A program made the translations under genes and the position numbers. A model generated the notes under the pieces. That model made no database searches, was not told where the DNA came from, and saw nothing but the letters and a program-made list of their open reading frames with translations. A DNA stretch of 64,000 nt from Candidatus Saccharimonadales bacterium (GTDB lineage Bacteria; Patescibacteriota; Saccharimonadia; Saccharimonadales; UBA4665), in the NCBI GenBank assembly GCA_041743655.1, contig JBGTMJ010000018.1:11225-75224 (forward strand), given 5' to 3'. Below, in pieces: positions 12,224 to 58,762 of the stretch (its first letter is position 1; the number at the start of each line of letters is the position of its first letter).

Positions 12224-12403
12224 CCAGAAAGTTTCATATCGTGGAGAATCCTACATCGGCCATCGGTTTGGCAGGCAACCAGTTCCGCCCAAACACGCTG
12301 AAACAGATAGCGAAAACTATGTAGCCGGACCAGAGATATATGGTGTGCCCGACTAGATACTCAAAAAACTGAATAGCATTCCGGTGCGTAGGACGAAAGT
12401 CAG
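12224..12403 (-). pseudogene. 59-codon ORF resembling the N-terminal half of a GtrA-family protein (possible remnant)
   Basis: Not in the track (<60 aa). ATG 12403..12401 overlaps the TGA of the upstream ligase gene (ATGA), with GGAG upstream. MKRTDFRPTHRNAIQFFEYLVGHTIYLWSGYIVFAICFSVFGRNWLPAKP... has two TM helices and ends 50 nt before the LexA-like gene start. Confidence 0.3.
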
Positions 12404-13740: not shown

Positions 13741-13752
13741 GTATAACGGCCT

Positions 13753-16298: not shown

Positions 16299-16321
16299 TA
16301 TCATTCACGGAGAGCTTTTAA

Positions 16322-18163: not shown

Positions 18164-18197
18164 GGGGTTATGTCGATAACGCAAGGCTTGCTGCCAG

Positions 18198-19280
18198 CTA
18201 GAGATATTCGCTCTCGCTCTTTTGAGCTAGTAAACCTTGTATATCCTTGATTTTTTCAATTTTGTCCTTTGGTATTACCAATAATACATCGTCTGTATCG
18301 ACGATCACCAAATCTTCAACTCCTGCGACTGCTATAAGTTTCTGTTTGCTGCTCGTCTTAATAAGTGAACCTGTTGTCTCAACAGCCACTACATTACCGT
18401 CAGTGTAGTTTCCAATGCCGTCGCCATCTATAAAGAACTCGTACACTGAACCCCAGGTACCGATATCCGCCCATTTGTATGGCAACAGAACTATACGCCC
18501 TTCTTTCATGACGTGTTTGGTTACTTCCTCAGTCGCACCCTTCTCCATACTTTCGTATATCTCTTCGATAACCGCATCCTCGCCAGGCTTATCGATGGCC
18601 TCTTTAATTCTCATGAGCGCCTCGTACCAGTCAGGCCGGTGCTTCTTATAGGCATCTAGCATAAGTTCCGGATACCAGCATGAATGATTGCAGTGGGTCA
18701 CAATATGATAGTTTTCGATCAGCTCCTTGGTCTCACGATAGCTGGATCTCCGGCCTAAGAACTCTTCTACTTCAAATACGTCTTGGCCATCATGAGCCAC
18801 TTCTTCACCAAGTTGTAGATAATCCACACCCATGTCCGGTGCAGTTGCCTTAATGCCACCAGAAATATATTTTTTGTCCCTTTTTACGAGTTTGCCGACA
18901 TCGTCAATCATCTGCAAAAAAGCTTCTTCTGGCTTGCGGACACAGTCGGCCTGCACTAAAAAGAAAGGTTCATTGGGATGTATAACACTGAGCCGTAAAA
19001 ATGCCAAGCCCTCGCCTGGACCACGGTCTTTAGCAACATCCGGCTCAACAATGTAGTTCTTAAGTGGTATCTTAGGGGACTGTTCGGAAATATATTTTAT
19101 AAACTTGCGTTTGGTAGAAACAAATATATCTTCGGGGGCAAACTTTTTGAGTAACGTAGTAATCGTATACGTATAGAGTGACGCGTCCCCAACAATAGAT
19201 TGGAATTGCTTAGGCTTATTCTTACGAGAGTAAGGCCATAGCTTCGTCCCCTGTCCACCCGCCGTAACTATTATTTTCAT
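18198..19280 (-). CDS. sugar-1-phosphate nucleotidyltransferase (mannose-1-phosphate guanylyltransferase-like)
   Basis: MKIIVTAGGQGTKLWPYSR... nucleotidyltransferase signature. 360 aa with no obvious cupin/isomerase domain. Confidence 0.75.
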   Translation of the reverse strand: MKIIVTAGGQGTKLWPYSRKNKPKQFQSIVGDASLYTYTITTLLKKFAPEDIFVSTKRKFIKYISEQSPKIPLKNYIVEPDVAKDRGPGEGLAFLRLSVIHPNEPFFLVQADCVRKPEEAFLQMIDDVGKLVKRDKKYISGGIKATAPDMGVDYLQLGEEVAHDGQDVFEVEEFLGRRSSYRETKELIENYHIVTHCNHSCWYPELMLDAYKKHRPDWYEALMRIKEAIDKPGEDAVIEEIYESMEKGATEEVTKHVMKEGRIVLLPYKWADIGTWGSVYEFFIDGDGIGNYTDGNVVAVETTGSLIKTSSKQKLIAVAGVEDLVIVDTDDVLLVIPKDKIEKIKDIQGLLAQKSESEYL

Positions 19281-19508
19281 TACTACTCCTACTCACCACC
19301 CCCTGTTAATTAGTGTTGTACGCTGCTTGTTGTTCGGCCATCAATAAACGGCAACCTTCATGCGTATCATAACACTTGTTTCGCACTAAAACAGATAGTT
19401 GTAGTAATGACATACTAGAAAACTAGCCTGCAATAGTATTATTACATTGTATGTTCCGCTTGTTTTGTGGCATAGATGGTTTTACTGCTTAATTACCAGG
19501 AGGCTCCC

Positions 19509-21889
<2,381 letters not shown>

Positions 21890-21906
21890 AGGAAGGATTT
21901 TACACT

Positions 21907-22476
21907 ATGAGCGTACCAACTACTGAATTTACTCCCCATCCAACCGAAATACCAGGTCTACTGATTTTTGACGTTACTGATGTGGGTGACGATCGTGGTT
22001 ACTTCCAGGAGAAATATCAAAAAGCCAAGTTGGTAAAGGCAGGTATGCCTCAGAGCTTTGATGTAGTACAGAACAGCTTATCATATAACAAAGAAGCTGG
22101 CGTTACTCGTGGGTTTCATGCCGAGCCTTGGGACAAATACATATCAGTAGTAATGGGGAAAGTTTTTGCCGCATATGTAGACCTGCGTTTAGGTGATACG
22201 TTCGGTAAAGTTGTAACAACCGAGATTACCCCCAATAATGCAGTATTTCTGCCCCAAGGAGTAGGCAACTCATTCCAAACACTTGAACCAAATACCTATT
22301 ATCTTTATAGCGTCAACGCCCATTGGAGTGCTGACAATTACGCTAAATACTTATCCGTCAACTTGGCCGACCCAGATGCTCATGTCGAGTGGCCAATCCC
22401 CTTAAACCAAGCCATCATGTCCGACCGGGACCGCAACCATCCCCGAATAAAAGACGTCAAACCATTGGAGGTTTAA
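21907..22476 (+). CDS. rfbC: dTDP-4-dehydrorhamnose 3,5-epimerase
   Basis: 189 aa. Cupin-type RmlC pattern (DDRGYFQE..., GFHAEPWDKY..., FLPQGVGNSFQ) and position inside the rfb block. Confidence 0.88.
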   Translation: MSVPTTEFTPHPTEIPGLLIFDVTDVGDDRGYFQEKYQKAKLVKAGMPQSFDVVQNSLSYNKEAGVTRGFHAEPWDKYISVVMGKVFAAYVDLRLGDTFGKVVTTEITPNNAVFLPQGVGNSFQTLEPNTYYLYSVNAHWSADNYAKYLSVNLADPDAHVEWPIPLNQAIMSDRDRNHPRIKDVKPLEV

Positions 22477-22480
22477 AAGT

Positions 22481-23356
22481 ATGGATACTTCTCGTTTCTT
22501 GATTGTCGGTGCCTATGGCCAGCTCGGGAAAGCGTTGCAGGCTAAGTACCCCGATGCTATTGCCGCAGACCGCGACACTTTCGATATGACTGACCAGAAA
22601 ATGCTACGCAGCTATGACTGGTCCAAGATTGATACTATCCTTAATGCTGCTGCTTTCACGAATGTCGATGGAGCCGAGACATCCGAGGGACGCAAAGCAG
22701 CCTGGGAGATTAACGCACATGCTATAGGCTCGTTGGCTATTATTGCTGCCGAACATAACTTAACACTTGTGCACATATCAAGCGACTACGTCTTCGACGG
22801 CAGCAAGGCACCACATAGTGAAGAAGAAGCTTTTACTCCATTAAACATGTATGGCAAGACCAAAGCGGCAGGTGATATTGCGGCGACTATTGCCCCTAAA
22901 CACTACATACTCCGTACCTCATGGGTGATTGGTGATGGCCCTAACTTTGTCCGGGCCATGATAGACCGGGCTGGTAAGAATATTTCTCCCACAGTTGTAG
23001 CTGACCAGGTAGGCCGTCTCACTTTTGTAGGCACACTTGTCGATGCCATCGATCACCTGTTACGAAACAAGCCAGGGTACGGTACATACAACGTTAGCAA
23101 TGATGGTGAGCCGGCAAGCTGGGCCGCGATAACCCGCACTATTTTTAAAGAGCTGGGCCACGATGACCTCGCTGTTACCGACACGACCACGGCAGAATAT
23201 TTTGTAACCAGACCTGCCGCCGCGCCACGTCCGCTGAAAAGTGTTCTAGACCTTAACAAAATCAAAGCAACTGGCCTCCAACTACGTGATTGGCGAGATG
23301 ATTTACACGATTATATTAAAGCAGAAACAGCCAAGCCAAAGGAACAAGAGTCATGA
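22481..23356 (+). CDS. rfbD: dTDP-4-dehydrorhamnose reductase
   Basis: [11 protein letters not shown]ossmann motif, [18 protein letters not shown] catalytic motif. Overlaps rfbA by 4 nt. Confidence 0.9.
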
Positions 23357-24225
23357 AAGGTATCATTCTAGCAGGTGGATCAGGTTCACGTCTGTACCCG
23401 ATAACCAAGGGAATTTCCAAACAGCTCATGCCTATTTATGACAAGCCAATGGTATATTATCCACTATCGACGCTCATGATGGCCGGTATCCAGGAAATAC
23501 TCATTATTACTACTCCTGACGATCAGGCACAATTTAAACGACTCTTGGGTGACGGGTCACAGCTTGGCTGCCGCTTCGAGTATGTCGCACAGCCACAGCC
23601 GAACGGTCTTGCCGAAGCATTTATTATTGGTGAAGAATTTATCGGTGACGATAAAGTTGCACTGGTACTGGGCGACAATATCTTTTACGGTCATGGCTTC
23701 GGTAACAGCCTCAAAAAATGCACCGATTCGGATGGGGGTGTTGTCTTTGCCTACCCGGTTTCCGACCCTGAACGATATGGTGTCGTTGAGTTTGACAAGG
23801 ATTTGAGGGCTGTCTCTATCGAGGAAAAACCTTCGGAACCTAAGTCTAATTATGCCGTAGTAGGGCTCTACTTCTTTGATAATGATGTAGTCGAGATTGC
23901 CAAAAGCATTAAACCATCTGATCGTGGCGAACTGGAGATTACTACGGTAAACGAAACGTACTTGAAACGTGGAAAACTAAAGGTTCAAACCATGGACCGT
24001 GGTACTGCCTGGCTGGATACTGGTACCTTTGGCTCCATGACCGACGCTTCACAGTTCGTAGAAGTCATTGAAAAGCGTACCGGTCTTAAACTCGGCTGTA
24101 TTGAAGAAGTTGCCTGGCAGGAAAAATATATAGACAGCAAACAATTGCTGGCCCTTGCCGAACCACTTGTTAAAAGTGGCTATGGGGTGTACTTAAAGAA
24201 AATTTTAGAAGACAGCCGCACATAA
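23353..24225 (+). CDS. rfbA: glucose-1-phosphate thymidylyltransferase
   Basis: [39 protein letters not shown]... is a near-canonical RmlA N-terminus. Confidence 0.96.
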
Positions 24226-37896: not shown

Positions 37897-39897
37897 ATGA
37901 TTCTGGAGGGGAAACTCAAACCATGGTTTGATGCCTGTATTACCATACTGCGTATACCTTTGGTGACTCCACTGATAGTCGGCCTGGTACTATCTACTAC
38001 ACCACTCCGATTCTTCGCTTTTGTCATTATTATATATGTTGGCGCTCGGCTATTGCCGTTGTCGATAGGTCTTATAGGGAAGGTAGTGGCTGCCTATTTG
38101 ATGATAGCCTCAGCCAACTGTATCATCGCGGGAGTCGCCTGGCTGCTTAAACTACAGCTTACTTCCGGTTTGCTTTTAAGCATATTGCTGTTCACCTTAC
38201 TCGTAACTGTCATGTTTATGCATAGCAAAAAGATTCGTTTACCGGCTATACCTAAGCTTTGGATGGGTGACGATTTGGTAGCAGTAGCTGTTGCCGTAGC
38301 GGCTCTGGTAATCCTCTTTCTGCCAGTCTTTCCGCGGCCCAATGCTAATACCTTAGCACCCGTCGTTATAGCAGGTGGTGACAATTCTGCACATATAGAA
38401 ATGCTGAAGACAAACGACTTTAACAGGGGTTATTCTATCGGTACCGACAACCGGTTTAATATGGCTTCAAATTTGTATGCTTATTCTCAGGGTTGGCATT
38501 TTAATGGTGCTTTTGTGAAATGGCTCATTGAGTCATTTGTATACATTGGTTCTTCGCCGAGCAGAATACTTGCCCTCTTTTATACCTATAGCGCTGTTTG
38601 GTTCGCTATTCTCGTATTCCTCATGACTCGTCTGTCACTAATGGTTGCATCTATCAATGGTAAACGCAAAGGTTGGTCGAGAATCGCAGCCGCTCTGATC
38701 TGCTCTCTTGGTGTCGCAGGTTGGGTCTTACCATTGTTTGCAAGTGGATTTGAACCGCAAATTGGCTCCCTTGCTCTTTTCTTGCTTGAAATCCTATTTT
38801 TGCTTGAAGCTTATGACAGACCGGCAGATAGGCGATACGGGTACCTACTATTGGCTGGTTTTGCAGCGGCAACCCTTAGTTTTGTGTGGGTCTTCTTGTT
38901 ACCTCTTGCGGCGCTTAGCCTTCTTCTATTTGTAGGCCACACATACTTTACAACCAAGCGAAAACGCCCCCCTATCTATTTTATGCTCATTGGTGCTCTG
39001 TTGGGTCTGACATCTTTCTTCCAGATATATATTCAGATGACTCATCCCGAATCAGGTGGAGGCATTGATGCGTACGGTTACATACCCTATATGCCGCCAC
39101 TGTATCCTTTTATTGGTGTCATTCTAGCGGCCGGTCTGTACGTATATCTGCATTTTACATCATTAAAACTACGTATACTCTACATCTACGGGCTTCTTAC
39201 AATCGCTTTCGCTATTGGGATGATGGTCTATCAAGTAACGGCTTTCGACGAAGTGAGGTATTACTACTATAAATCATTGCATACAGTGGTAGTAATTGCC
39301 ATTATCCTCGTAGCAGCTATTGGCAGCAGGCTTCTTCAACAAGTACTTGTCCACCGTCCGCAAAAGATATCTCAAGCACCCCACACAGTACTAGTTATAG
39401 GTACACTGCTAGTACTCTTCGGCATAGCTTTCGTGGCTGTCAAATCTCCGCAGTTTGATGACTACTATCACAAACGAATTGCAGGGATAACTCCAGAGCA
39501 AGCCAACACCATGGTAGATCTTATTGCAGCCAATCCAATCAATGGTTTTCGCTACGCTCCTATTGGCAGCTGCGACCGGGGTAATGATATTAGGGCGATA
39601 TTGCTTGCACACGCTTTGGCTTATACGCCCGCCGCATACAAAGAACCTACTGTCGTCCTGGGACTAACTAGCAGCGACAAGCAATTCATCTATTGGCAAA
39701 TCAACCTTTTCCTTAAGCGACACAAAAAAGATTTGTACGTTATCAGTCGTGACCAAAGCCTGAATGCTGGCTTATTTGATTATGTAGGTGCTAACAGCCG
39801 TTTCATACACCTAATAGACGTTGATCCTGATCCACCAGCCACTCTCCTGGCTGATTGTCCTGGCCGACTGGGCCGCCAGCCGATCCCGATCAATTAG
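37897..39897 (+). CDS. polytopic membrane protein, GT-C-like candidate
   Basis: 666 aa, ~14 TM helices, soluble C-terminal ~170 aa. No SD; TGCAATAAT (37881..37889) ends 7 nt before the ATG. Confidence 0.55.
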   Translation: MILEGKLKPWFDACITILRIPLVTPLIVGLVLSTTPLRFFAFVIIIYVGARLLPLSIGLIGKVVAAYLMIASANCIIAGVAWLLKLQLTSGLLLSILLFTLLVTVMFMHSKKIRLPAIPKLWMGDDLVAVAVAVAALVILFLPVFPRPNANTLAPVVIAGGDNSAHIEMLKTNDFNRGYSIGTDNRFNMASNLYAYSQGWHFNGAFVKWLIESFVYIGSSPSRILALFYTYSAVWFAILVFLMTRLSLMVASINGKRKGWSRIAAALICSLGVAGWVLPLFASGFEPQIGSLALFLLEILFLLEAYDRPADRRYGYLLLAGFAAATLSFVWVFLLPLAALSLLLFVGHTYFTTKRKRPPIYFMLIGALLGLTSFFQIYIQMTHPESGGGIDAYGYIPYMPPLYPFIGVILAAGLYVYLHFTSLKLRILYIYGLLTIAFAIGMMVYQVTAFDEVRYYYYKSLHTVVVIAIILVAAIGSRLLQQVLVHRPQKISQAPHTVLVIGTLLVLFGIAFVAVKSPQFDDYYHKRIAGITPEQANTMVDLIAANPINGFRYAPIGSCDRGNDIRAILLAHALAYTPAAYKEPTVVLGLTSSDKQFIYWQINLFLKRHKKDLYVISRDQSLNAGLFDYVGANSRFIHLIDVDPDPPATLLADCPGRLGRQPIPIN

Positions 39898-42725
39898 AGA
39901 TTACTACCTGTCTGCAGTGAGTTAATAAGTGCCTCTGAGACAGACATATATGGAGCGTATTGGGCATTGTAGGTTGCTGGCGATGTGATAAATCGCTTGG
40001 TACCGTTCTCGATTTTGAAGATACCCGGTCCGGCACCTTTGATTGATTTTTGTGCAGACCCAGTGAATAACAATAGATCTAGGAAACCGTTACTGACTGT
40101 CGGAACACTGAGGGATCCGGAATTAGTCCACTGGTTTAAAATAGCCGTATCGCTGAAGACGCGCTTACCGCCGCCGTCAATGGCAAAATAGGCGTTGTCT
40201 GTAGCCTTGATAACCACACTCGACCAAACAGAAATAGTATTGGGGGCAATACCTGGATCAAGCGGTGTAAATGCGGGATTATTGCCGCCAACGTTGGCTA
40301 GTTGTGTATCATCCGCGGTGTACCAATTACCTGACTCAATCACAAACTTACGATTATCGCCTTGCTGGTTGGATCGCGCGAATCTATACAATGCCTGAAT
40401 ACTCATAGAATTGGGTACCGCCTGAGAACTCATCTCTGGTGCATTTTTTATGTTCCAGACATCGGCAATACTGGGGTCGACTGTCGCATATGCCTTACCG
40501 CCACTAATAAGATAGTAGGTCCCATCAGCGCCGCGCGCCTTAGACTGTAGGGCCCCGGCTGTAGTTACTCTATCCACCGTCCCATCAGAAAGGGCCTGCG
40601 CATTACTAAGGCCCCAGTCTCCAGCTATGCTCGGGCTGACTGTCCACTTTTTACCATTATCAATCAAATAGTTAGTTCCAGCATTCGATACATATGTACT
40701 AAGGCTGCTAGCAGTCCCCATAGCGTTTACTATGTAAAAAGAGAGCTCAGTGGGTGTTGCTTGCTGGCCGCCCCAAGCTTTCATGGTACTGGAGCTTACC
40801 TGTCGTCGGTTACCGCTGTCATCTAGAAAGTATATTGTCGATGAGTCATTACTCTTTATGAAAGCCGTTACAGCCGTCGTGGTAGGGTAAAGAGCCATCA
40901 GGGAACTGCTAGCAGTAAGAACTGGGCCCGAATTCCTGTACGCAGTGTCCAGGCTGGGTGGGATAGGAACCTTACGTCGATTGATAAGATACAGTTGGCC
41001 ACCACTATCTGCTAGATATCCGTTTAAGTTTGCCCCTTGGGCAATCAAATTAAGAAAGCTGTTATTAACAATAGTGACATCTTGTGTCGGCGTACTCCAG
41101 GCATTGAGAGCTTCTGAGGACGGTAATGGGTATCTAACACCGTTATCAACGACATATACTGGGCTTGTCGGTGACTGAATAACCTGTGTTACATTAGGAC
41201 CGACGCTTAGCCGCCCGATCGTAGCCCACGATACAGTGTGCGCTGTTCCAGTAAATATTGAGGACACGGCGCTGGTCTGCCATAACCTATAACCATTAAC
41301 AATTTGGTATTCTGCGCCGCCGCATATTACCTTTGTACTAGCTAGCGTTGTACCAATGGCATTATCGATAGCGTTGAAATAGCCACTTGATAGTGTGATA
41401 TAGCCGGCATTCATACCTTCCCAAGCTCTAAAAACATCACTATTCTGATATGCCCGCAGGACTGTTTGGCCTTGAGTATTTGCACCGTCAACCAAATAAA
41501 TAGTAGAACTATCTGGACCCTTCATGGCATATGTTAAGTCACCGCCATCCGTTGGCACATTAAATAGCCCCTGGCTGACCCGGCTGACCACTTTTCCTCG
41601 TAGATTCCAAGTATCAAGCATAGCATCCCAAGGAATACGATACCGCTTACCATTATCAAGGAAGTAGACTGTCGGTTCATTATTCATACGCATTAACCTG
41701 TCAAGTGGCGGCCCGGTAGTAATAGTAGCGAGATAACTGGAGGGGAAGGTTATGGGCGTAAGAGCATCTAGACCCCACGCCTTTTTAGTCTCCACGTCAG
41801 AAACCATTTGTTTGACTCCAGTATAAATCACATATTGCGTAGCACTGCCATCATCGGTCACTGCGAATGTGAAGCCATCATTCCAGGTGCTGCCAAACCA
41901 ATCATTGTATAACCGCCAGAAGTTGCGGTTACCATATGCGCCACAGCCATCACCACTTCCATAGAGGTTATTGAGGGCGGACTGGTTTGGCTGATAGGGG
42001 GTGTAGTTGTACAGCCCGGCAGTTGCTTGGTTTTCCATTACAATGCTCGAACCACCACATGAACCAACGGGATTATATTGAACGTAGCTTGACCGTCCAG
42101 CCCGGTGATTATACAGATGGGCATCGCGAGAATACTTCTTAAATTGACGGGCCGCGTTATATACCTGATTGAAAAAGCCGTAATACTCCGAATCGCAAGG
42201 CGCTGAGTCTGGGCAACCATAACCCGTTGCACTTCTGTACTGAAGAGGCCAAGGCCAATCATCGGTAACTAGCGACTGCTCCTTCTGGAGTAATACAATG
42301 AGCGCCTTTTGGCTTATTCCACAACTCTGGCCAACTGCATATATAATTTCTGCTGCTGATTTATTGCCACCCGAGTAACTACCACACAAGCCTGTTTCTG
42401 CATTTCGTGCAGGAGTGTCTTGACGAAAGTCTTTTAAGCAAGTGTAGGGAGGCGGATACCCTTTTGATGCACCATATGCAGCCCGGGTCGTCCCCCCACG
42501 TGGCTGGGTCCCATTCGTATCACACACTGGTACTTTACTGTTTAGAAAGTTTTGAATATCATTGGCTGCTAATGTACTGCCGTTGAAGAATACCCCATCA
42601 TCAATAATACGGCCAGGCCTAAAATCACCACCGTTGAGCGCAGAAGCGTTTCCGGGTGTAAAAACAACGAGCGAGAGCATTACTGCCAGTGCCGTACATA
42701 CAACTGTTTTTCTCAACGTATGCAT
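39894..42725 (-). CDS. secreted 943-aa protein: N-terminal Cys-rich hydrolase-like module plus ~12 tandem ~55-aa repeats
   Basis: Signal peptide (VVCTALAVMLSLVVFTPGNASA). N-terminal module contains ...GISQKALIVLLQKEQSLV.... Repeats follow x-Y-[LFV]-[IV]-[DE]-[NG]-G-[KR]-x-x-x-[IV]-x-[SP]...W, e.g. TVYFLDNGKRYRIPW, PVYVVDNGVRYPLPS, TNYLIDNGKKWTVSPS, IFKIENGTKRFITSP. Confidence 0.75.
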   Translation of the reverse strand: MHTLRKTVVCTALAVMLSLVVFTPGNASALNGGDFRPGRIIDDGVFFNGSTLAANDIQNFLNSKVPVCDTNGTQPRGGTTRAAYGASKGYPPPYTCLKDFRQDTPARNAETGLCGSYSGGNKSAAEIIYAVGQSCGISQKALIVLLQKEQSLVTDDWPWPLQYRSATGYGCPDSAPCDSEYYGFFNQVYNAARQFKKYSRDAHLYNHRAGRSSYVQYNPVGSCGGSSIVMENQATAGLYNYTPYQPNQSALNNLYGSGDGCGAYGNRNFWRLYNDWFGSTWNDGFTFAVTDDGSATQYVIYTGVKQMVSDVETKKAWGLDALTPITFPSSYLATITTGPPLDRLMRMNNEPTVYFLDNGKRYRIPWDAMLDTWNLRGKVVSRVSQGLFNVPTDGGDLTYAMKGPDSSTIYLVDGANTQGQTVLRAYQNSDVFRAWEGMNAGYITLSSGYFNAIDNAIGTTLASTKVICGGAEYQIVNGYRLWQTSAVSSIFTGTAHTVSWATIGRLSVGPNVTQVIQSPTSPVYVVDNGVRYPLPSSEALNAWSTPTQDVTIVNNSFLNLIAQGANLNGYLADSGGQLYLINRRKVPIPPSLDTAYRNSGPVLTASSSLMALYPTTTAVTAFIKSNDSSTIYFLDDSGNRRQVSSSTMKAWGGQQATPTELSFYIVNAMGTASSLSTYVSNAGTNYLIDNGKKWTVSPSIAGDWGLSNAQALSDGTVDRVTTAGALQSKARGADGTYYLISGGKAYATVDPSIADVWNIKNAPEMSSQAVPNSMSIQALYRFARSNQQGDNRKFVIESGNWYTADDTQLANVGGNNPAFTPLDPGIAPNTISVWSSVVIKATDNAYFAIDGGGKRVFSDTAILNQWTNSGSLSVPTVSNGFLDLLLFTGSAQKSIKGAGPGIFKIENGTKRFITSPATYNAQYAPYMSVSEALINSLQTGSNL

Positions 42726-42729
42726 ATCC

Positions 42730-43290
42730 TTATTTTACCTCAAACGTAACTGCCGAGGACTTTCCTTCGGCCTTATTGGATTGATAGGTCATCACTACCG
42801 ACCACATACCGGCTGCAGGTAAGTCAGACCGGGCAAAACGGATAGGGGTACATAGTGTTGTTGTTGCGTCTTGAAGACCACCTGAGCTTTTTTCAATCGT
42901 TTCATTATCTTTGGTAAATCGTGCAGTACAAGCTCCGCCGTTTTCGGTGACGCCTGACACATAGGCATAGACTTCAATCTCTTTTTGGTCAGTGGTTTGT
43001 TGGGCCGAGCTTATATGCACTGTAACCGAACTCTTTTGTCCATCAGGCTTCTTAGCTTCTTGTTCTGCGCGATCAACCACTCTCTGTTTGCTTTCTTCTG
43101 CTTGCTGCTTCTCTTCTTTGGTTGCAGGATTGTAGTTGATCCCACTTTCACTATCAATGCCTGTCTTTACCTGTGTTGTGACGTTATCTTGACGAGTACG
43201 AGAGTGCACAACTCCAGCCACAATAAGGCCAAGGGTAATAACAGCGGCCAGGATAAGTACTTTTTTTGATCGTAGTCTATCTAGTTTCAT
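42730..43290 (-). CDS. membrane-anchored small protein co-transcribed with the 943-aa repeat protein
   Basis: 186 aa. N-terminal TM (VLILAAVITLGLIVAGVV), charged linker, C-terminal beta-rich domain with two Cys. Its stop lies 4 nt before the next start. Confidence 0.6.
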   Translation of the reverse strand: MKLDRLRSKKVLILAAVITLGLIVAGVVHSRTRQDNVTTQVKTGIDSESGINYNPATKEEKQQAEESKQRVVDRAEQEAKKPDGQKSSVTVHISSAQQTTDQKEIEVYAYVSGVTENGGACTARFTKDNETIEKSSGGLQDATTTLCTPIRFARSDLPAAGMWSVVMTYQSNKAEGKSSAVTFEVK

Positions 43291-43418: not shown

Positions 43419-44690
43419 CTAACTAAGTTCTTTCTTCAAAATTCTGTCCAGGTGGTCAGTGTACTTGAACCAGGCAAACTCTTTGGCGTAATCAGAAACT
43501 GCTTGCGCCTGTTTGGCTGGATCTGACGGGTTGGCTGCCTCCCAAATAGCGTCCGCTAAACCCTGTGGGCTTGGTTCCGCGTATTGTACGTATTTGGGAT
43601 AATGAACCATTGTAGTGTATGGTGCTTTATTAACAACAGGTATGCAGCCGCTCGCCATCATTTCAACTGGCAGCAAGGACATACTCGTAAATGATAATGC
43701 CAAGCCTGTTGCACTCTCGTTATAAAGCTTGTTCAGATCTTCAGTATCCAAAATACGCCTATTTACGTACGGAAAAGGTAGCTCGTATCGACTAATGTCC
43801 CAGCCGATGCAATGGATCTCAAACTCTGGGTGTGCTTGGTGAAACAATTGTAAGGCCAAGACACCTAGCTCAAAGCCACGACGTGGTGTAACTGGGCGTG
43901 CATAGAATACAATCTTCTTCCGTTTTTTGATGTTTGTTAAGTAATACTCACTGGGCGTTATCCCCAAGGAAAGCTCGTCGCAGACCATACCATACTCCCG
44001 ACTTACCTTGTCGGTCACCCATGGGCTTGTTGATACACCGTGGAGGCCCATCTTATACGTATTATCAGCTAGGGCATTATAAGTGCCCGCTGGCTCAAAC
44101 ATCGCCTCATAATCTTGGAGGAAATAAAATTTCTTGGCGTTACCTTGATAGTTATAGACAGGGTAGGCGGTGGTCCATCCCGTAGCGAATATAGCATCAC
44201 ATGGAGCAAAGCTACCTTCATTATAGAAAAGCTCAGCCTTTATAGGCACATGATGTTTCATATTCTCTTTAATCTCTTTTAAAGAGTGCTTTTTGAGACC
44301 GTCATAAAAGTAAACCCTGCAGGCATGTCCTTTTGACTCTAAGGATTGAATCATTCTAAATATAACGGCATGACCACCTGAAACAGACCCGACTGGCGGC
44401 ACTATCCAGTTGAGGGTATAAGGAGGGTTGTGCTTCCTAAGTTTTAATTGAGGGGGTATCTTACGATAATCTGCTGCGACCAAATCTTCTTCGGTCGCTG
44501 GCCACAAAACAGTTAAAGGTTTACCGTCACCCCGCATCTCCCTTACTTCTGCAGCCCACTCATCATTACGGTCTTCAAGCCTCTTAACAACATTATGCAG
44601 TTCGGCTATTTCTTGTTCCTTCTGCCTTATATATAAACCAGTAACAGGTAGCCTACGGATAATACTGCTAGCAATCTTTCTAGGTTTCAC
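43419..44690 (-). CDS. glycosyltransferase, WsaF-like (rhamnosyltransferase family candidate)
   Basis: LNWIVPPVGSVSGGHAVIFRMIQSLESKGH resembles the WsaF N-terminal signature. GT-B-like C-terminal half. Lies in an operon with the ABC exporter. Confidence 0.65.
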   Translation of the reverse strand: MKPRKIASSIIRRLPVTGLYIRQKEQEIAELHNVVKRLEDRNDEWAAEVREMRGDGKPLTVLWPATEEDLVAADYRKIPPQLKLRKHNPPYTLNWIVPPVGSVSGGHAVIFRMIQSLESKGHACRVYFYDGLKKHSLKEIKENMKHHVPIKAELFYNEGSFAPCDAIFATGWTTAYPVYNYQGNAKKFYFLQDYEAMFEPAGTYNALADNTYKMGLHGVSTSPWVTDKVSREYGMVCDELSLGITPSEYYLTNIKKRKKIVFYARPVTPRRGFELGVLALQLFHQAHPEFEIHCIGWDISRYELPFPYVNRRILDTEDLNKLYNESATGLALSFTSMSLLPVEMMASGCIPVVNKAPYTTMVHYPKYVQYAEPSPQGLADAIWEAANPSDPAKQAQAVSDYAKEFAWFKYTDHLDRILKKELS

Positions 44691-45922
44691 GCTTTTCTAT
44701 CCTTTGCAGGCAGAGACCACCGAGCCTGCATATTAAACTCACCGTTGCTGCTTGGTGAAATTTCCTGCACAGTAACACGCGGGGACTTATAACCGTAGCT
44801 TGAATCAAGGATATCAATCAGCTCGGGAATATCTATCGAAGGCCACTCACAATAGGTATATAGTGCTGCGTTGACAAAATAATCGCCCTTAGTAAGCTGC
44901 CCAGCCTTAACTGTGCAGGTGATAGTGTGGCTTCCATAATCAGGCCTGTAGTGTTTGAGGTCAGTTGTCGTATTGATGCCTGCAAGATACCGTCCGTCTG
45001 GATGTACAAGAAACATATTAAACTGCACTTCGGTAGGGATTCTAACGGTAAAGTTAATGTCTACAATAATATCCTCATCGATACCAAACGTACGCTTGCC
45101 ATTCTTGGCCCGAACGATAATATCGTTCATGTGTACAGCAGCGTTTTTAGGACGATCAGACTTTCTATCACTAACTTCGGCGTCATGTGCTGCATTGGCA
45201 ACCTCATAATGTAGGGCAACCTCACGCGGCTTACCTAGCATCAGCATCTTCGAGTCTTCAATCATGAGCGCCCTATCGCAGTACTCTTGTACAGCGTTCA
45301 TGTCATGGGTAACGAATATAACGGTACGGCCGGACTTTTTGATCTTGTTAAAGACATCGAAACACTTACGCTGGAAATTTGCATCACCTACGGCCAATAC
45401 TTCGTCAATTAATAAGATATCGTTGTGTGCTTGAATGGCGATTGAAAATGCCAGTCTTACCTGCATGCCAGAGGAGTAGTTTTTGAGTTTCTGATCCATG
45501 AATTTATGCAGTTCGGCAAAGTCTACAATTTCTTGATACTTCTCGTGCACTTCCTTACGTGTAAGTCCTAGAATAGCACCGTTAAGATATACATTGTCTC
45601 GACCTGTCAGTTCGGGGTTAAAACCAATACCCAATTCGATAAAGGGTGTTAGAGTACCGTTTATATGCACCCTACCGCTGGTGGGTTGATAAATACCGCC
45701 AATAATCTTTAGTAATGTCGATTTACCACTACCGTTACGACCGACAATACCGAAGAACTCTCCACGTCTTACCTCGAAGTTAATGTCATGCAAAGCATGG
45801 AACTTATCATAGGTGGGCTTTTTGAAGCTTAGAACCCGTTCCTTCAATGAATCACGCCGTTCATGAGGCAGTCGGAAGTCCTTGTAAAGATGTTCGATAG
45901 AAATTGCAATATCTCTATTCAT
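44687..45922 (-). CDS. polysaccharide/teichoic-acid export ABC ATPase (Wzt/TagH type) with ~160-aa C-terminal extension
   Basis: Walker A GRNGSGKST, the FIELGIGFNPELTGRDNVYLNG motif typical of Wzt/TagH/KpsT, signature YSSGMQVRLAF, Walker B ILLIDEVL. Residues ~250-411 form an extra beta-rich domain. Confidence 0.9.
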   Translation of the reverse strand: MNRDIAISIEHLYKDFRLPHERRDSLKERVLSFKKPTYDKFHALHDINFEVRRGEFFGIVGRNGSGKSTLLKIIGGIYQPTSGRVHINGTLTPFIELGIGFNPELTGRDNVYLNGAILGLTRKEVHEKYQEIVDFAELHKFMDQKLKNYSSGMQVRLAFSIAIQAHNDILLIDEVLAVGDANFQRKCFDVFNKIKKSGRTVIFVTHDMNAVQEYCDRALMIEDSKMLMLGKPREVALHYEVANAAHDAEVSDRKSDRPKNAAVHMNDIIVRAKNGKRTFGIDEDIIVDINFTVRIPTEVQFNMFLVHPDGRYLAGINTTTDLKHYRPDYGSHTITCTVKAGQLTKGDYFVNAALYTYCEWPSIDIPELIDILDSSYGYKSPRVTVQEISPSSNGEFNMQARWSLPAKDRKA

Positions 45923-45925
45923 GGC

Positions 45926-46738
45926 TTACAGCTCCTCGGCAAAGTTACGCGATGCGCGCCGGAAATAAAAGCCAGCCACGACCGCAAGAGCCACGACCGC
46001 AACTACAGGAAGGATCCGGCCAGTGAATTGTGATTGAAAGACCTGTTTTGTCGTTAGTGTTTCAGGGGTAATAAGGACTGACCGTAAGTCTTGTAGAATT
46101 TGTGTCGCCGGATTAAAGCTGATGATTTCACGAATACGTTGCGGGGGCATTGTTAATGGATAGATAATCGGAACGGCGTAAAACAGAATTTGTAAAATAA
46201 CATCCCATATATGACTGATGTCACGGAATTTTACATATAGCGCCGCAAGCAGAAAGGCAAAACCCATTGCAAACACAACTAGTTCGGCAATGAGCGGAAT
46301 AGCCCACAGGGCACTCCAACGAACTTCTACACCGCTGATAACCATAAAAAATAGCACTACGACCATATTCAAGGCAAAGTTAACAAACGCTGACAATGTC
46401 GTACTGATGACGAGCGTATATTTCGGGATGCTCACTTTACGTACCAGATCACCCCTACCAGTAATAGCATTCATACCACTTACTGTGGCTTCGATAAAGA
46501 ACGTCCAGGCCACAATACCCAGCAATAGATATGCCGGGTAGTGGGGAACGCCATCGCCCAGTTTTACAACCTTTGTAAACACAACGTACAGCACCAAAAA
46601 AAGCATCAAGGGGCGCAATAGTGACCACATGTATCCTAACAGTGAACCTTGATAGCGCATTTTAAAGTCACTAGAAACCAGCTCGCGTATAAGGCTGCGG
46701 TTGCTAGGCTTAAATGCGCGCTTTACTGCAGCAATCAT
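45926..46738 (-). CDS. ABC-2 type polysaccharide export permease (Wzm/TagG type)
   Basis: 270 aa, six TM helices, N-terminal ...LIRELVSSDFKMRYQGSLLGYMWSLLRPL... signature. Confidence 0.88.
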   Translation of the reverse strand: MIAAVKRAFKPSNRSLIRELVSSDFKMRYQGSLLGYMWSLLRPLMLFLVLYVVFTKVVKLGDGVPHYPAYLLLGIVAWTFFIEATVSGMNAITGRGDLVRKVSIPKYTLVISTTLSAFVNFALNMVVVLFFMVISGVEVRWSALWAIPLIAELVVFAMGFAFLLAALYVKFRDISHIWDVILQILFYAVPIIYPLTMPPQRIREIISFNPATQILQDLRSVLITPETLTTKQVFQSQFTGRILPVVAVVALAVVAGFYFRRASRNFAEEL

Positions 46739-48792
46739 TGCTTGGCTACCTTTTCATAAAAATCACTGACCTTTTTTATTACATGATCCCAGTGGTAAGC
46801 TTCTGCTGTTTTCTTCGCTTCCCTGGACAGCTGTTTACGGTAATCTGGATCGGCAAACAGCTTATCTAATGCTGTACGCAGGCCCTCCACATCATCATGT
46901 TCCACCATCAGACAGTTCTTACCATCTTTGCAAAAATCTTGATTACCATTGGCGTCGGTACATACTACAGGGGTGCCGGTCGCCATTGCCTCTAATAATG
47001 GCAGGCTGAAACCCTCATGGCGGGAAGTCTGCACAAAGACTGTGGCTTGATTGTACAGTTTGTTTACCTCTTCGTTACTTGGCTTGGAAACATATTTTAT
47101 TTTTTTGTCGCGGCGCGCCAATTCTGGTTCAAAACCAAACAAGGTCATAGCAGGGCGGTTATCTCCCATTGCCTGCCAACCGTTTAGGGTAAATTCAAAA
47201 TTCTTTTGGAAAAATTTGCGGCCCACGCCAAGAAGCATATCGTCTTTACGTTTGATATCCTTAAGGGCTTTGTATATTTTGTTGTCGAACCCGCACGGCA
47301 CAGTGGTCACCTTAAGTCCGAGCTCCTGTATTTCTTTGCTGTTATATTTGGAAGTAGTTATATTCTTAAACTCTTTACGGTAGCAGGATATAACTGCGCT
47401 CTGGGCGATAATATCATTCGGATAAAACCAGGACTCAATTTCCTGAATGAAATACACAGGAATGCCTTTTTTGACCGATGCGAGCCACACTGGGAACGCT
47501 GTTTCCCACCATGTAGCCACCTTTATTGCTTCTTGGTCTTCGAGTGCACTGCTCAAACGCTCGTAACTTTTAAAAGTACGCAACTTAACACGCCCATCTA
47601 GTTTCCACGGTGATGCATGGTGGTCAAGCCCCCATACTTCAATGTTAAACTTGTTCTTTGGCAACCGATTAGCCTGTTCGAAAACGATCTTAATTCCTCC
47701 GCTAAGTCCTAATGTTTGCAAAACGAAGATAACGCGAATCTTGCCGTCCTTATCCCGCACGTTGCGCTTATCAAACCAGTCCCCCCATTTTTCCCAGAAA
47801 TACTCCATTGAGCGTTTTTCTTTAGCCGACATGGTTTTATTTTTTGCGCGTGTGGCGGATTCTACATGGGTAAGTACGGCAGCCGGAAAATAAAGGCTGC
47901 GAAAGCCAGCTTCCCATCCGCGCAGACACCAATCGGCATCTTCGAAAGCAAACGGGAATTTTTCGTCAAACACGCCAACATAATCAAGAAATTCACGCTT
48001 TACATACATGCAGGCTCCAGTCAAGGCAAGACAGTATTGAGGCACGTTGGCTGGACCATAATTTGCATCTTGAAAACGGTAGTAATGATCAAAAAATTCG
48101 GGCACTTCAGTGTTACGGTAGCTGCCAGCACTTTGAATACGACCATCTGGATACAATAATTTTGGGCCGACTATTCCGGTATCAACGCCAAACTCATACG
48201 CACCATATTGTAAACCTTCAATCCAGCCAGGGTGGGCAACAATATCTGAATTTACCAGTACTACGTCCTGATCTTTAGGGGCCGCCAATAAGCCTGCGTT
48301 TACTGCCTTGGCAAAACCGCCATTTTCTTCACGAAACAAAATACGAACCTGTTCGTTTTCAAGCTTTTTTAGTTCTTTACGATGCTCTTTTTGACAATAG
48401 TCATCAACCACGATCACTTTGACAAGATCTGGGGAGCTAGTAGCTGCAATGCTTTCGAGGCAGGGTATTAATACATTTAAATCGTTATAGCTGGGAATAA
48501 CCACTGTCACTGGTTTTGCGTTGTCTATATACCACTCTAAAACCACTTCTTGGTTCACACCACTTACCAGGCCATTAGGGAAATACAAGTTTGCGCCGTG
48601 CTTACGGTCAATTGCCACAACTTCCTGTTTTAACTTAGTAACAAGAGCCTTCGGGCCATATTTAAAAGCATAGCGAGTAGCATAAAACGATACTGTCAGT
48701 AAACCCTTATTCTTATACCTAAGGTGTCCTTTGCTAATTTTCTTTACACCACGTTTCCCAACCCGGTACAAAAGTTTTATCTTCTTCTTCAT
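46735..48792 (-). CDS. bifunctional glycosyltransferase (GT2 domain + GT4/GT-B domain)
   Basis: ATG at 48792 (MKKKIKLLYR...); the track TTG/ATG extension is antisense to the neighbouring gene. VTVVIPSYNDLNVL...VIVVDDYC and a C-terminal ...VQTSRHEGFSLPLLEAMATGTPVV EX7E motif. Confidence 0.8.
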   Translation of the reverse strand: MKKKIKLLYRVGKRGVKKISKGHLRYKNKGLLTVSFYATRYAFKYGPKALVTKLKQEVVAIDRKHGANLYFPNGLVSGVNQEVVLEWYIDNAKPVTVVIPSYNDLNVLIPCLESIAATSSPDLVKVIVVDDYCQKEHRKELKKLENEQVRILFREENGGFAKAVNAGLLAAPKDQDVVLVNSDIVAHPGWIEGLQYGAYEFGVDTGIVGPKLLYPDGRIQSAGSYRNTEVPEFFDHYYRFQDANYGPANVPQYCLALTGACMYVKREFLDYVGVFDEKFPFAFEDADWCLRGWEAGFRSLYFPAAVLTHVESATRAKNKTMSAKEKRSMEYFWEKWGDWFDKRNVRDKDGKIRVIFVLQTLGLSGGIKIVFEQANRLPKNKFNIEVWGLDHHASPWKLDGRVKLRTFKSYERLSSALEDQEAIKVATWWETAFPVWLASVKKGIPVYFIQEIESWFYPNDIIAQSAVISCYRKEFKNITTSKYNSKEIQELGLKVTTVPCGFDNKIYKALKDIKRKDDMLLGVGRKFFQKNFEFTLNGWQAMGDNRPAMTLFGFEPELARRDKKIKYVSKPSNEEVNKLYNQATVFVQTSRHEGFSLPLLEAMATGTPVVCTDANGNQDFCKDGKNCLMVEHDDVEGLRTALDKLFADPDYRKQLSREAKKTAEAYHWDHVIKKVSDFYEKVAKQ

Positions 48793-48811
48793 ATTTACTA
48801 GAATATACCAT

Positions 48812-49927
48812 ATGGCTAAGAAAATCGTTATTGATGCAAGGGAACTGCGCACCAGCACTGGACGTTACATAGAACGCTTATTATATTATCTACAACAGAT
48901 AGACAATGAGCATGATTATATAGTACTGCTCAAACCTCAGGACATAGTGGGCTGGCAGCCAACAAGCAAACATTTTACGAAAATGCTATGTCCCTACAAA
49001 GAATTTACATTTAGCGAACAGTTAGGTTTTTTACAACAGCTTAACAAAATACGTGCCGACCTGGTTCACTTTCCTATGGTTCAGCAACCTATATTATACC
49101 GCGGCAACACTGTAACAACCATGCAAGACCTTACTACGTGCCGATTTCGTAATCCAACCAAAAACTGGCTGGTATTTACTGTTAAGCAGCAGGTATACAA
49201 ATTCGTAAATTGGTACGTGCCACGTAAAAGTACCCGTGTGATAACACCGACTGAATACGTCAAACGCGACATTACGGACTTTGCTGGTGTACGGCCAGAA
49301 AAACTCATTGTAACGCATGAGGCAGCTGACCCTATACCCTACTCCCCTGTTCCCCCTTCCCTGCCAATTTTACAAAAAACTAACTTTATTATGTACGTAG
49401 GAAGGCCTTTGCCGCACAAAAATCTTGGGCATCTTATTGAAGCATTCACTATATTGCAAAAAACATACCCTTCCCTTCACCTGGTGTTCGTTGGCAAAAA
49501 AGATACCATGTACGGGCAGATAGAAAACGGTGTACGGGCAATGGGTACAAAAAATGTAGTATTTACTGATTTTGTGAGCGAAGCTGAACTACGTTGGCTC
49601 TACGAGAACTGCGCTGTATATGTTTTTCCTTCCTTAAGTGAAGGTTTTGGATTGCCAGGACTGGAAGCAATGCTGCATAGTGCACCTGTAGCTTCGAGCA
49701 ATGCCACATGCTTGCCAGAGGTATACGGCGAAGCGGCTCAATATTTCAACCCACTCGATATACAAGACATGGCAACCAAGATTGCTGAGGTGCTTGGTGA
49801 TGAAAAACTTCGCACTCAGCTCGTCAAAAAAGGCCATGAACAAGCTAAAAAGTACTCCTGGCATAGAATGGCAGAAGAAACCCTGCTCGTTTATAAAGAG
49901 GCTTTGGGCGAAACAACAGACGCTTGA
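48812..49927 (+). CDS. glycosyltransferase family 4 (GT-B)
   Basis: ATG at 48812 (MAKKIVIDAREL...). C-terminal VFPSLSEGFGLPGLEAMLHSAPVASS motif. The track start at 48731 would add a Phe-rich artefact. Confidence 0.85.
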   Translation: MAKKIVIDARELRTSTGRYIERLLYYLQQIDNEHDYIVLLKPQDIVGWQPTSKHFTKMLCPYKEFTFSEQLGFLQQLNKIRADLVHFPMVQQPILYRGNTVTTMQDLTTCRFRNPTKNWLVFTVKQQVYKFVNWYVPRKSTRVITPTEYVKRDITDFAGVRPEKLIVTHEAADPIPYSPVPPSLPILQKTNFIMYVGRPLPHKNLGHLIEAFTILQKTYPSLHLVFVGKKDTMYGQIENGVRAMGTKNVVFTDFVSEAELRWLYENCAVYVFPSLSEGFGLPGLEAMLHSAPVASSNATCLPEVYGEAAQYFNPLDIQDMATKIAEVLGDEKLRTQLVKKGHEQAKKYSWHRMAEETLLVYKEALGETTDA

Positions 49928-57493: not shown

Positions 57494-58762
57494 CTACTTT
57501 ATTAGTCTGTACCATGCATAAGTTGTGAATTCGCTTGCTATATCTGCCATCGGCGCACGTGTATCAAGTGACGCTGACGCCGCGTTACCATTGAACCCAG
57601 GTATGCTGCCTACATAAATATATGTGTGTCCACCACCGGGGCCGCCATCGCGGATAGCAATGTCCCCAGGTTGTAGATTTTCAACGCCCGTTACCCCAGT
57701 CAATTTTTGGTATTTCTGAGGATTGTCTTCCATGTATTGCAGTTGATAAGTTGTGTTACCGTTCTTATTATTATATTCGGGATCAAGGCCACTATTTCTC
57801 ATTACTCGTGTTACGAAGCCTCCGCAATCTACGCCAGGATAGCTCAGTCCACCAATATATTCACCATTAGCCTGAGCAGTTTTAACAGCTGTCTCGTAAG
57901 CGGGCTTCATATCGAAGTTGCCTTCTTTATAATCCGGCCACGCGTAATTTGCGATTGTTTGCATCAGGTTACCCGATACAGCTCCCACACAATCACCGCT
58001 GCCTGAAGCTATTGTCTCACCGCTTGATCCACCGGTTACGGCTACCGGTGAGGCTATTGCAGGAGAATCATTCCATAAACGAGTTACATAGTCTTGCGCC
58101 TGCCCTTTCTTCTCGTTATATCGATCTGGGAAAGCGGAGCGTTGTACAGCCTGAGCAGCAGCACCAGGATCCATGGATTGCCAATTTGGCAGATTCTGCA
58201 ACCCTTTACTTAATGCTGGTGGTGCGTTAGAACCTGGTTTGCTGCCAAAAAACGCTTGTGCACTGTAAGCAGGATCCATGAGTTGCCATATAGCATCTTT
58301 ATTACCTAAGGCAGCATCGCCAGTGGCAATTGTGCTCCAGCCAGTTGAGGGCCGTTGCTGGAATACGCCCACGGAGTCGTGGTCTTTTCCAACGGCCTGT
58401 TTTTTGGGGTTATCGAGTGACAATGGAACGGTGGAGTTGGCATAGATAGTAAGGTGTGACTCGGTAATTCCTACCATCAGCCCAATAAGCGCACCTGCTT
58501 GCCCAAGGTTTTCTGTCTTGGCAATGCCTATAATCGTTTTAGCGATTTCATCTTGAGAAGCTGTTGTACTTATGTTGCTTCCTGTCCCTAGTGTTGTGCC
58601 GCACGCACCGAGCGGAAGTATGTCATAGAAGGTCGTCTCTTGCACCAGGCTATCCCTATCATGATCACTAATCGTAGCATACGTGACTGGAGTAGAACCT
58701 ATGAATACAAGCCCGAATATGACTATAGCAGTAGATTTTAGTATATGTGTAAATAATCTCAC
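57494..58762 (-). CDS. secreted two-domain cell-wall hydrolase (transglycosylase-like N-domain + NlpC/P60- or CHAP-like Cys peptidase C-domain)
   Basis: Signal/TM peptide. ...VGITESHLTIY...DHDSVGVFQQRPSTGWS...AAQAVQRSAFPDRY resembles muramidase-like modules of Gram-positive conjugation systems. C-terminal ...GVDCGGFVTRVM...GGHTYIYVG gives a Cys/His pair. Confidence 0.65.
   Translation of the reverse strand: MRLFTHILKSTAIVIFGLVFIGSTPVTYATISDHDRDSLVQETTFYDILPLGACGTTLGTGSNISTTASQDEIAKTIIGIAKTENLGQAGALIGLMVGITESHLTIYANSTVPLSLDNPKKQAVGKDHDSVGVFQQRPSTGWSTIATGDAALGNKDAIWQLMDPAYSAQAFFGSKPGSNAPPALSKGLQNLPNWQSMDPGAAAQAVQRSAFPDRYNEKKGQAQDYVTRLWNDSPAIASPVAVTGGSSGETIASGSGDCVGAVSGNLMQTIANYAWPDYKEGNFDMKPAYETAVKTAQANGEYIGGLSYPGVDCGGFVTRVMRNSGLDPEYNNKNGNTTYQLQYMEDNPQKYQKLTGVTGVENLQPGDIAIRDGGPGGGHTYIYVGSIPGFNGNAASASLDTRAPMADIASEFTTYAWYRLIK

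Follow-up and report, generated by a model that had tools for sequence, protein, structure and literature searches.

A secreted protein with a lysozyme-like head and twelve EccB-type repeats in an envelope-glycan island of a Saccharimonadales bacterium, a possible hydrolase of the cell's own wall glycans

An anchored 186-aa protein and a secreted modular 943-aa protein are encoded together

The DNA analyzed here (the window) is a 64,000-nt stretch of Candidatus Saccharimonadales bacterium, contig JBGTMJ010000018.1, from a 95%-complete genome (G000), in which two adjacent minus-strand genes encode a 186-aa anchored protein and a 943-aa secreted protein. An earlier description made from the letters alone, referred to below as the sequence-only reading, had reported a 943-aa open reading frame (ORF) and an anchored 186-aa ORF ending 4 nt upstream of it; both are borne out by ORF reading and by the junction sequence. 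We give an about even chance to the view that the 943-aa protein is a modular hydrolase of wall glycans that is secreted, acts on the cell's own envelope and is docked to the cell's own rhamnose polymer. The features of the gene pair are as follows.

42730..43290, minus strand: gene of the 186-aa partner protein (ORF); its stop codon and the start of the 943-aa gene are 4 nt apart
39894..42725, minus strand: gene of the 943-aa secreted protein (ORF)
42639..42725, minus strand: signal peptide of the 943-aa protein (aa 1-29), cleavage predicted after A-S-A by sequence reading
41853..42638, minus strand: head domain (aa 30-291), Cys-rich and lysozyme-like; codon of the candidate catalytic Glu149 at 42279-42281, with Asp173, Thr242 and Asn266
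39897..41852, minus strand: twelve tandem EccB-type repeats (aa 292-943), from repeat statistics, Pfam, Foldseek and the structural model

The junction between the two genes reads ...GAG GTA AAA TAA ggat ATG..., with a GAGG motif ~11 nt 5' of the ATG of the 943-aa gene, and neither a terminator-like nor a convincing promoter-like site was found in the intergenic stretch. From the 4-nt gap and the lack of such sites, we infer that the two genes are co-transcribed. The signal peptide proposed in the sequence-only reading stands up to inspection: the N-terminus has an RK pair, a hydrophobic core and ASA followed by L, the AxA is conserved in the family, whose consensus retains it ahead of SGSDF, and the AlphaFold model places a helix at aa 2-22. 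The 943-aa protein is predicted to be exported by Sec and its signal peptide cleaved. All twelve repeat motifs quoted earlier could be located (residues 298, 352, 408, 472, 522, 577, 630, 685, 737, 793, 845 and 902, at a spacing of 50-64 residues), and the head is, as had been described, rich in Cys, Tyr and Gly (Gly 11%, Tyr 6.9%, Cys 3.1%).

The tail is an array of EccB-type repeats

The repeat units start at aa 292, 346, 402, 466, 516, 571, 624, 679, 731, 787, 839 and 896. In a leave-one-out hidden Markov model (HMM) test, nine of the 12 repeats outscored all 200 shuffles, repeats 4, 6 and 10 being degenerate, and a broader family-wide repeat HMM recovered all 12. Modeled at full length with AlphaFold2 on 83 homologues, the protein has a mean predicted local distance difference test score (pLDDT) of 92.3, and DSSP assigns to every unit of the model the same strand/helix pattern of ~4 strands and two helices. 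The repeats are too divergent to be detected by BLASTP comparison of the protein with itself. When the genome was searched with the narrow profile, the repeat was confined to the 943-aa protein at E <= 0.01.

The sequence-only reading had been unable to name the repeat family; repeat detection and structure prediction now supply a name. The sole significant Pfam match of the 943-aa protein is PF05108 at aa 294-343 (E = 5.8e-9, 35.6 bits against a cut-off of 27), and it spans profile positions 414-462 of 474 only, which corresponds to one C-terminal EccB repeat. Foldseek retrieved 11 EccB1/EccB3/EccB5 structures (E = 2.4e-7 to 1.1e-4, probability 0.84-1.0). By Pfam and Foldseek, the modeled repeats have the EccB repeat fold, and their likeness to R1-R4 of EccB (PDB 3x3m, 4kk7, 5cyu) lies in the ~55-residue unit of four strands and two helices, an arrangement also reported for the EccB1 repeats (PMC4769845). 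Global superposition on EccB is poor (root-mean-square deviation ~37 Å), so the unit matches EccB but the overall assembly does not: EccB has four repeats around a central core and an N-terminal anchor, whereas the 943-aa protein has 12 tandem units on an enzyme-like head.

Membership of the EccB family itself was rejected, the score against TIGR03919 being 23.5 bits for a cut-off of 154. The architecture is also not that of EccB, since the 943-aa protein starts with a signal peptide of the cleavable type, continues with a helical head and 12 repeats without interruption, and has no membrane anchor or central core. ESX / type VII genes were not seen near the 943-aa gene, whose neighbors are devoted to glycan synthesis, and EccC/WXG100 were not searched genome-wide. 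The Foldseek match to the B12-binding protein BtuK1 was insignificant (E = 0.03, probability 0.08).

The sequence-only reading had offered two forms for the tail, a long array of binding repeats or a propeller. The array of binding-type repeats is supported; the propeller is not, the Foldseek matches to hemopexin, Kelch and WD40 proteins having E > 0.5 and probability <= 0.04. A structural role is attributed to EccB, and the paper on the EccB1 structure (PMC4769845) names PlyCB, whose own structure is PDB 4F87, as a relative in fold. The repeats have nevertheless not turned out to belong to a known domain whose role is other than binding, because this fold relative is a proven carbohydrate binder and the EccB repeats have no demonstrated role.

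The head reads as a lysozyme-like enzyme domain

The head has no match in Pfam, NCBIfam or PDB sequences, even with an 83-sequence profile, and in Pfam it matches nothing even at E = 10, GH73 (PF01832) and SLT (PF01464) included. The HMM searches against lysozyme, glucosaminidase and transglycosylase families that the sequence-only reading had proposed therefore do not place it in GH73 or GH23/SLT. Its fold was examined with a head-only model (pLDDT 95, predicted template modeling score 0.91). In a Foldseek-type fold search, 22 of the 33 rows of PDB matches, representing 11 distinct proteins, were lysozyme-superfamily enzymes: the GH73 proteins LytB, AtlE, Atl and Acp, the GH23 goose-type lysozymes, and further a GH23 chitinase, SltB1, another lytic transglycosylase and a GH124 cellulase. 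The match to LytB (7pj4) is weak (E = 3.2, TM 0.28-0.29). Among the viral structures of BFVD, the named matches were mostly of the lysozyme superfamily, led by a tail lysin, glucosaminidases and SLT/LT_GEWL proteins.

A 230-sequence head profile was then compared by hhalign with SLT and GH73 profiles built from Patescibacteria genomes and E. coli FlgJ. Against SLT, the score was 31.6 (P = 5.3e-4, probability 31%), with E149 on the catalytic Glu; against GH73 it was 23.7 (P = 0.01, probability 4%), with E149 on the Glu of A-x-x-E-S/T-G. The best alignment in both cases is the same 30-column helix-turn-helix of the head. Reversed profiles scored 12.7-15.5 and 60 column shuffles scored <= 18.0, and the known clan pair SLT-GH73, used as positive control, scored 40.7 on the same helix. 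In the model, E149 closes helix 139-150 (...LLQKE).

E149 is kept in 225 of the 230 heads. Four of the five heads lacking it are surplus copies found in proteins that carry three or four heads in tandem, and these copies are also without D173 and T242 and mostly without N266, while each multi-head protein retains the full Glu149/Asp173/Thr242/Asn266 set in at least one copy. Because the four residues are near-invariant and are lost jointly only in surplus copies, we read the head as bearing an active site. Of the Cys residues of the head, six are shared by 228 or more of the 230 family members, C114 and C135 by 183 each, and the motifs GYGCPD, LYNYTPYQPN and YGNRNFW are invariant and specific to the head. 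With GH73 (LytB, AtlE, Atl, FlgJ) and GH23 enzymes, the head would share a helical lysozyme-like fold and, by the hhalign placement of E149, a candidate catalytic Glu at the C-terminal end of a helix preceded by a helix-turn motif (...gi.p..l.a....E...). It differs in that the SLT motifs GLMQ and AYNAG are not recognizable and only the Glu-bearing helix aligns; the head is also larger (~260 aa), with 3-4 probable disulfides and invariant motifs of its own. We read the head as a new, previously unnamed enzyme family within the lysozyme-like superfamily, its activity being judged from the modeled fold and residue conservation. The proposal of the sequence-only reading that the head acts on a glycan or the wall is most likely correct, by the remote lysozyme-like fold and the active-site-like conservation.

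The multi-head metagenome proteins P0063, P0122 and P0123 have three or four tandem heads, typically with one copy carrying the full residue set, and this looks like one active domain accompanied by degenerate, perhaps substrate-binding, copies. Pfam labels on P0063 (ANAPC2, DUF7055 and others) are spurious, being sums of repeated weak matches.

The head could also be a dead lysozyme-like binding module, and the 943-aa protein a structural, S-layer-like component of the wall or a polymer ruler. Such a role would suit a long, repetitive protein that is modeled with high confidence, and would agree with the standing of EccB as structural and with a head that has no significant match to any enzyme family. 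The joint behavior of E149, D173, T242 and N266 is, however, the signature of an active site, and the fusion partners of the head (below) are typical of carbohydrate-active enzymes; we consider a non-enzymatic role very unlikely.

The head and the anchored partner form a conserved core with exchangeable tails

The head alone retrieves ~3,655 representative clusters at 50% identity, 2,184 of them at E <= 1e-30, and so defines a large unnamed enzyme-like family, whose members are labeled in databases as 'hypothetical' or, without evidence, as 'hemagglutinin'. The head invariably occupies the N-terminus, and tail length varies; the tails of the sampled proteins include DUF5648, NBR1-type Ig, NPCBM-associated, CARDB, FG-GAP, B_lectin, ricin-B, SH3_3, CHAP and SlpA domains, of which the CHAP and SH3_3 fusions are rare. 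The head is single-copy in our genome. Even within the genus of this bacterium the tail is swapped, G003 having an FG-GAP-like one. In most relatives the head is 45-73% identical (41% in one), and the repeats merely 24-42%. Three short contigs (L111, L123 and L163, 3.5-7.9 kb) in Limnocylindrales, Verrucomicrobiia and Dokdonella metagenome-assembled genomes carry heads nested among those of Saccharibacteria; they are probably binning contaminants, not real occurrences.

The N-terminus of the 186-aa protein has a positive segment and an 18-residue hydrophobic stretch (aa ~11-28) in which no cleavage site is evident; we read this as a signal anchor. After it come a charged linker and, at the C-terminus, a beta-rich domain of ~90 aa in which two Cys (C121, C147) are conserved. 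Orthologues with 32-42% identity lie directly upstream of the head gene in syntenic loci, and among 16 further relatives a homologue is found immediately 5' of the head gene in 12, irrespective of tail type. PDB matches of the 186-aa protein to retroviral integrases (E ~0.3) are chance matches of the charged linker. On comparison of these loci, the conserved unit appears to be the small anchored protein plus the head, with an exchangeable tail (EccB-like, NBR1-Ig or FG-GAP); as candidate roles of the partner we name tether, regulator or inhibitor.

EccB-like tails are associated with dTDP-L-rhamnose synthesis

Genes for dTDP-L-rhamnose synthesis are present in the window, 16-19 kb from the repeat gene, and RmlA and RmlC were also found by whole-genome search.

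20864..24225, plus strand: rmlB-rmlC-rmlD-rmlA (tblastn, 54-76% identity to the rml genes of L002)

In a set of 17 genomes, RmlA is present in all seven with EccB-like tails and in one of ten with other tails (p = 4e-4); the corresponding counts for RmlC are 5/7 and 1/10. A larger sample of 301 genomes from the order, searched with the broader repeat profile, contained 50 genomes with the repeat and 129 with RmlA. RmlA occurs in 43 of the 50 repeat-bearing and 86 of the 251 repeat-free genomes (odds ratio 11.8, Fisher p = 8.8e-12), and when only high-quality genomes are counted, in 38/42 and 74/205, respectively (p = 4.5e-11). In 30 genomes the repeat and rmlA are on one contig, separated by 1.9-18.7 kb (median 9.1 kb). 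The RmlC homologue of G010, a genome with the 12-repeat architecture, contains one in-frame TAA (C3:85197-85754) and is a pseudogene or reflects a sequencing error.

PlyCB binds the polyrhamnose backbone (bioRxiv 10.1101/2021.03.19.436156). From the genomic association, we infer that the repeats together act as a multivalent lectin that recognizes the rhamnose-containing polysaccharide of the cell's own wall; this would be the first genomic evidence for a ligand of EccB-type repeats. In an unlikely extension that goes with the shared-wall proposal below, EccB-type repeats would be a general rhamnose-glycan lectin fold, and the periplasmic domain of mycobacterial EccB would dock ESX to the arabinogalactan linker, which contains rhamnose.

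The gene pair resides in a wall-glycan cluster

Upstream of the gene pair, a same-strand glycan module spans 43419..48858 (minus strand), and downstream lies a convergent gene.

43419-44690, minus strand: WsaF-like rhamnosyltransferase (Pfam)
44687-45922, minus strand: Wzt ABC ATPase with Wzt_C (Pfam)
45926-46738, minus strand: Wzm ABC-2 permease (Pfam)
46735-48858, minus strand: GT2+GT4 glycosyltransferase fusion (Pfam)
37897..39897, plus strand: 666-aa polytopic membrane protein, convergent (ORF; no Pfam match)

The order GT2+GT4, Wzm, Wzt, methyltransferase/glycosyltransferase, small protein, large protein is kept in distant relatives at 41-47% identity, and Wzm and Wzt are within 10 kb of the head gene in 11 of the 16 further relatives. 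The stop codons of the 666-aa and 943-aa genes overlap by 4 nt (39894-39897). On L001, the one contig examined for it, a convergent polytopic membrane gene also follows the large-protein gene; it encodes an orthologue 30% identical to the 666-aa protein.

Proteins with GH73 (PF01832) or SLT (PF01464) were not found in the genome, in which the other glycan-strand-cleaving families MltG, GH25, RlpA and Rpf were not searched. Within the phylum sample (G041-G190), SLT was over the cut-off in 58 of 151 genomes, and GH73/SLT in 0 of the seven genomes of the order Saccharimonadales, our genome included. In this order of ultrasmall bacteria, which is mostly devoid of GH73 and SLT enzymes, the head family may provide the principal enzyme that cuts wall glycans. 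An LCP-family protein was not seen among the window ORFs scanned, LCP not having been searched genome-wide. A secreted protein in an operon resembling a type IV secretion system (57494-58762, minus strand) contains a weak NlpC/P60 endopeptidase domain (E = 5.5e-5) and is, by this domain prediction, a separate wall hydrolase of the genome.

Location in such a cluster raises the possibility that the head cuts the Wzm/Wzt-cluster polysaccharide, in trimming, chain-length control or release, with the repeats holding the substrate. In two phyla the gene is found strictly within the glycan cluster, a polymer-binding tail would present the polymer to the head, and lysozyme-like folds include enzymes that do not act on peptidoglycan, the GH23 chitinase and GH124 cellulase being among the matches. 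Parallels are known in the exopolysaccharide-operon hydrolases PslG, BcsZ and PelA and in mycobacterial LamH, the last a known case of an actinobacterial enzyme whose target is a glycan of its own envelope. Against this, heads in genomes without rml, with other tails and other glycosyltransferase sets, are still 45-73% identical, which argues for a common substrate; the closest fold and profile relatives of the head are mostly peptidoglycan-active; and the rare CHAP and SH3_3 fusions also point to peptidoglycan. We regard cleavage of the cluster polysaccharide as a serious possibility that is less probable than not.

The module is shared with cultured Microbacteriaceae

Heads with 50-58% identity are found in cultured Microbacteriaceae, among them Plantibacter, Leifsonia, Agromyces, Agreia, Cryobacterium, Cnuibacter and Rathayibacter. 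The Plantibacter and Leifsonia heads are followed by EccB-type repeats (3-4 units detected); in the Cnuibacter tail, EccB-like repeats were not detected. In three complete genomes (Plantibacter, Leifsonia, Cnuibacter), a small-protein homologue precedes the head gene, which lies, next to Wzm and a WsaF-like glycosyltransferase, <= 7 kb from the best Wzt of the genome; the WsaF-like protein of Plantibacter is 40% identical over its full length, and in Leifsonia RmlA and RmlB are near the head gene as well. The small-protein homologues of Plantibacter and Leifsonia have a lipoprotein lipobox. Because these bacteria are easily grown, the presence of the module in them makes the claims testable without culturing an epibiont.

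A maximum likelihood tree was constructed of 81 heads, which included the best 80 of 593 confirmed matches. The 19 actinobacterial heads form a single clade (support 100/98) that joins three Saccharibacteria sequences (97/87), inside the span of Saccharibacterial diversity. The topology fits one transfer between the phyla, in either direction. The wall-enzyme module is thus common to Saccharibacteria and an actinobacterial family that includes hosts: Leucobacter (Microbacteriaceae) is a documented host of Saccharibacteria (PMC9894109), and Microbacteriaceae are reported to carry rhamnan and rhamnomannan wall polymers. One could go further and propose that the hydrolase module, possibly with the rhamnan cluster, was exchanged between Saccharibacteria and Microbacteriaceae, that both partners may for that reason make a similar rhamnose polymer, and that the epibiont's enzyme docks to both walls at the contact zone, in a shared-wall remodeling that opens the two envelopes to each other; we think this unlikely.

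The sequence-only reading had suggested, for an epibiotic lifestyle, an adhesin or a lysin aimed at another cell, and this part of it is not supported. The same two-gene module and cluster are present in free-living cultured Microbacteriaceae, the tail type follows the organism's own dTDP-sugar pathway, and the locus for the organism's own wall polysaccharide consistently includes the gene pair. In a fuller version of the idea, the enzyme would be released against the wall of the epibiont's bacterial host, the tail would recognize host wall sugars and the anchored protein would protect the producer as an immunity protein. A secreted lysozyme-like enzyme beside a small extracytoplasmic anchored protein does resemble muramidase effector-immunity pairs, tails vary within one genus as host-range determinants do, and a rhamnan-binding tail could bind a host, as Microbacteriaceae have rhamnose polymers and include the host Leucobacter. 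Yet the same pair and cluster recur across the free-living cultured strains and the tail tracks the producer's own sugar pathway; the protein has an ordinary Sec signal with no secretion-system genes coupled to it; and phage or toxin-like relatives of the head were looked for and not found. A host-directed lysin or adhesin is, in our estimate, quite unlikely.

Proposed action on the cell's own envelope and the points that weigh against it

In the hydrolase reading that we prefer, the 943-aa protein would be exported via Sec and its signal peptide removed. In the disulfide-rich head of ~260 aa, Glu149 would serve as the general acid, and Asp173, Thr242 and Asn266 would help to form the site. 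The substrate would be the glycan strands of peptidoglycan, to which we lean modestly over the polysaccharide of the neighboring cluster, because the head stays 45-73% identical across genomes with differing polymers and tails, and because the order Saccharimonadales is largely without GH73 and SLT enzymes. The 12 EccB-type repeats would dock the enzyme, in the manner of PlyCB, to the rhamnose-containing polysaccharide of the adjacent Wzm/Wzt and rml cluster. The anchored 186-aa protein, translationally coupled to the enzyme, would be an obligate partner that tethers or restrains it at the membrane face of the wall. Head and partner would thus be the conserved core, and the tail would be exchanged to suit the polymer that each genome makes.

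Several findings weigh against this reading. No fold match of the head is individually significant, the best PDB match having E = 2.0 and the best viral match E = 0.18, with TM ~0.3, and the hhalign alignments of the head span only ~30 columns, with probabilities of 31% (SLT) and 4% (GH73). We know of no demonstrated binding role for EccB repeats. The repeat-RmlA statistics ignore phylogeny, both tail classes occurring within one taxonomic family, and the association is one-directional, with 86 RmlA-positive genomes that lack the repeat, and has seven exceptions. The partner has no recognizable fold or function and no Pfam or PDB relative, and the place of the 943-aa gene in the glycan cluster would be just as expected of a glycanase specific for the polymer. 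Finally, the EccB-tail genomes G017 and G038 are without detectable RmlC. In both, RmlA adjoins the repeat gene (as does RmlB in G017); these genomes may make another dTDP-6-deoxyhexose, and the ligand of the tail may be broader than L-rhamnose.

The proposed arrangement has counterparts in known systems. The endolysin PlyC of streptococcal phage C1, which consists of the catalytic subunit PlyCA and an octameric, wall-binding PlyCB ring, follows the same logic of a wall hydrolase aimed at a rhamnose polysaccharide by multivalent modules of related fold. Polymer-docked proteins include those with SLH domains, linked to csaB, in Bacillus anthracis, those with CWB2 domains, linked to PS-II, in Clostridioides difficile, and the choline-binding hydrolases of pneumococci. 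They resemble the 943-aa protein in having a non-covalent docking module matched to a secondary wall polymer, with linked genes, but the docking fold and the head differ, and the 943-aa protein has a small anchored partner, proposed to be obligate, and a tail that is swapped wholesale among close relatives.

Other genes of the island

The window as a whole is a large envelope-glycan island that contains, beside rmlBCDA, a phosphoglycosyl transferase, sugar-nucleotide enzymes and additional glycosyltransferases.

12400-13740, minus strand: Wzy_C/O-antigen-ligase-like protein
13753-15195: Bac_transf initiating transferase

This second part of the island (window positions 12400-24225) also holds a GT4 glycosyltransferase, GlmS, a ManC-like enzyme and a PGM/PMM.

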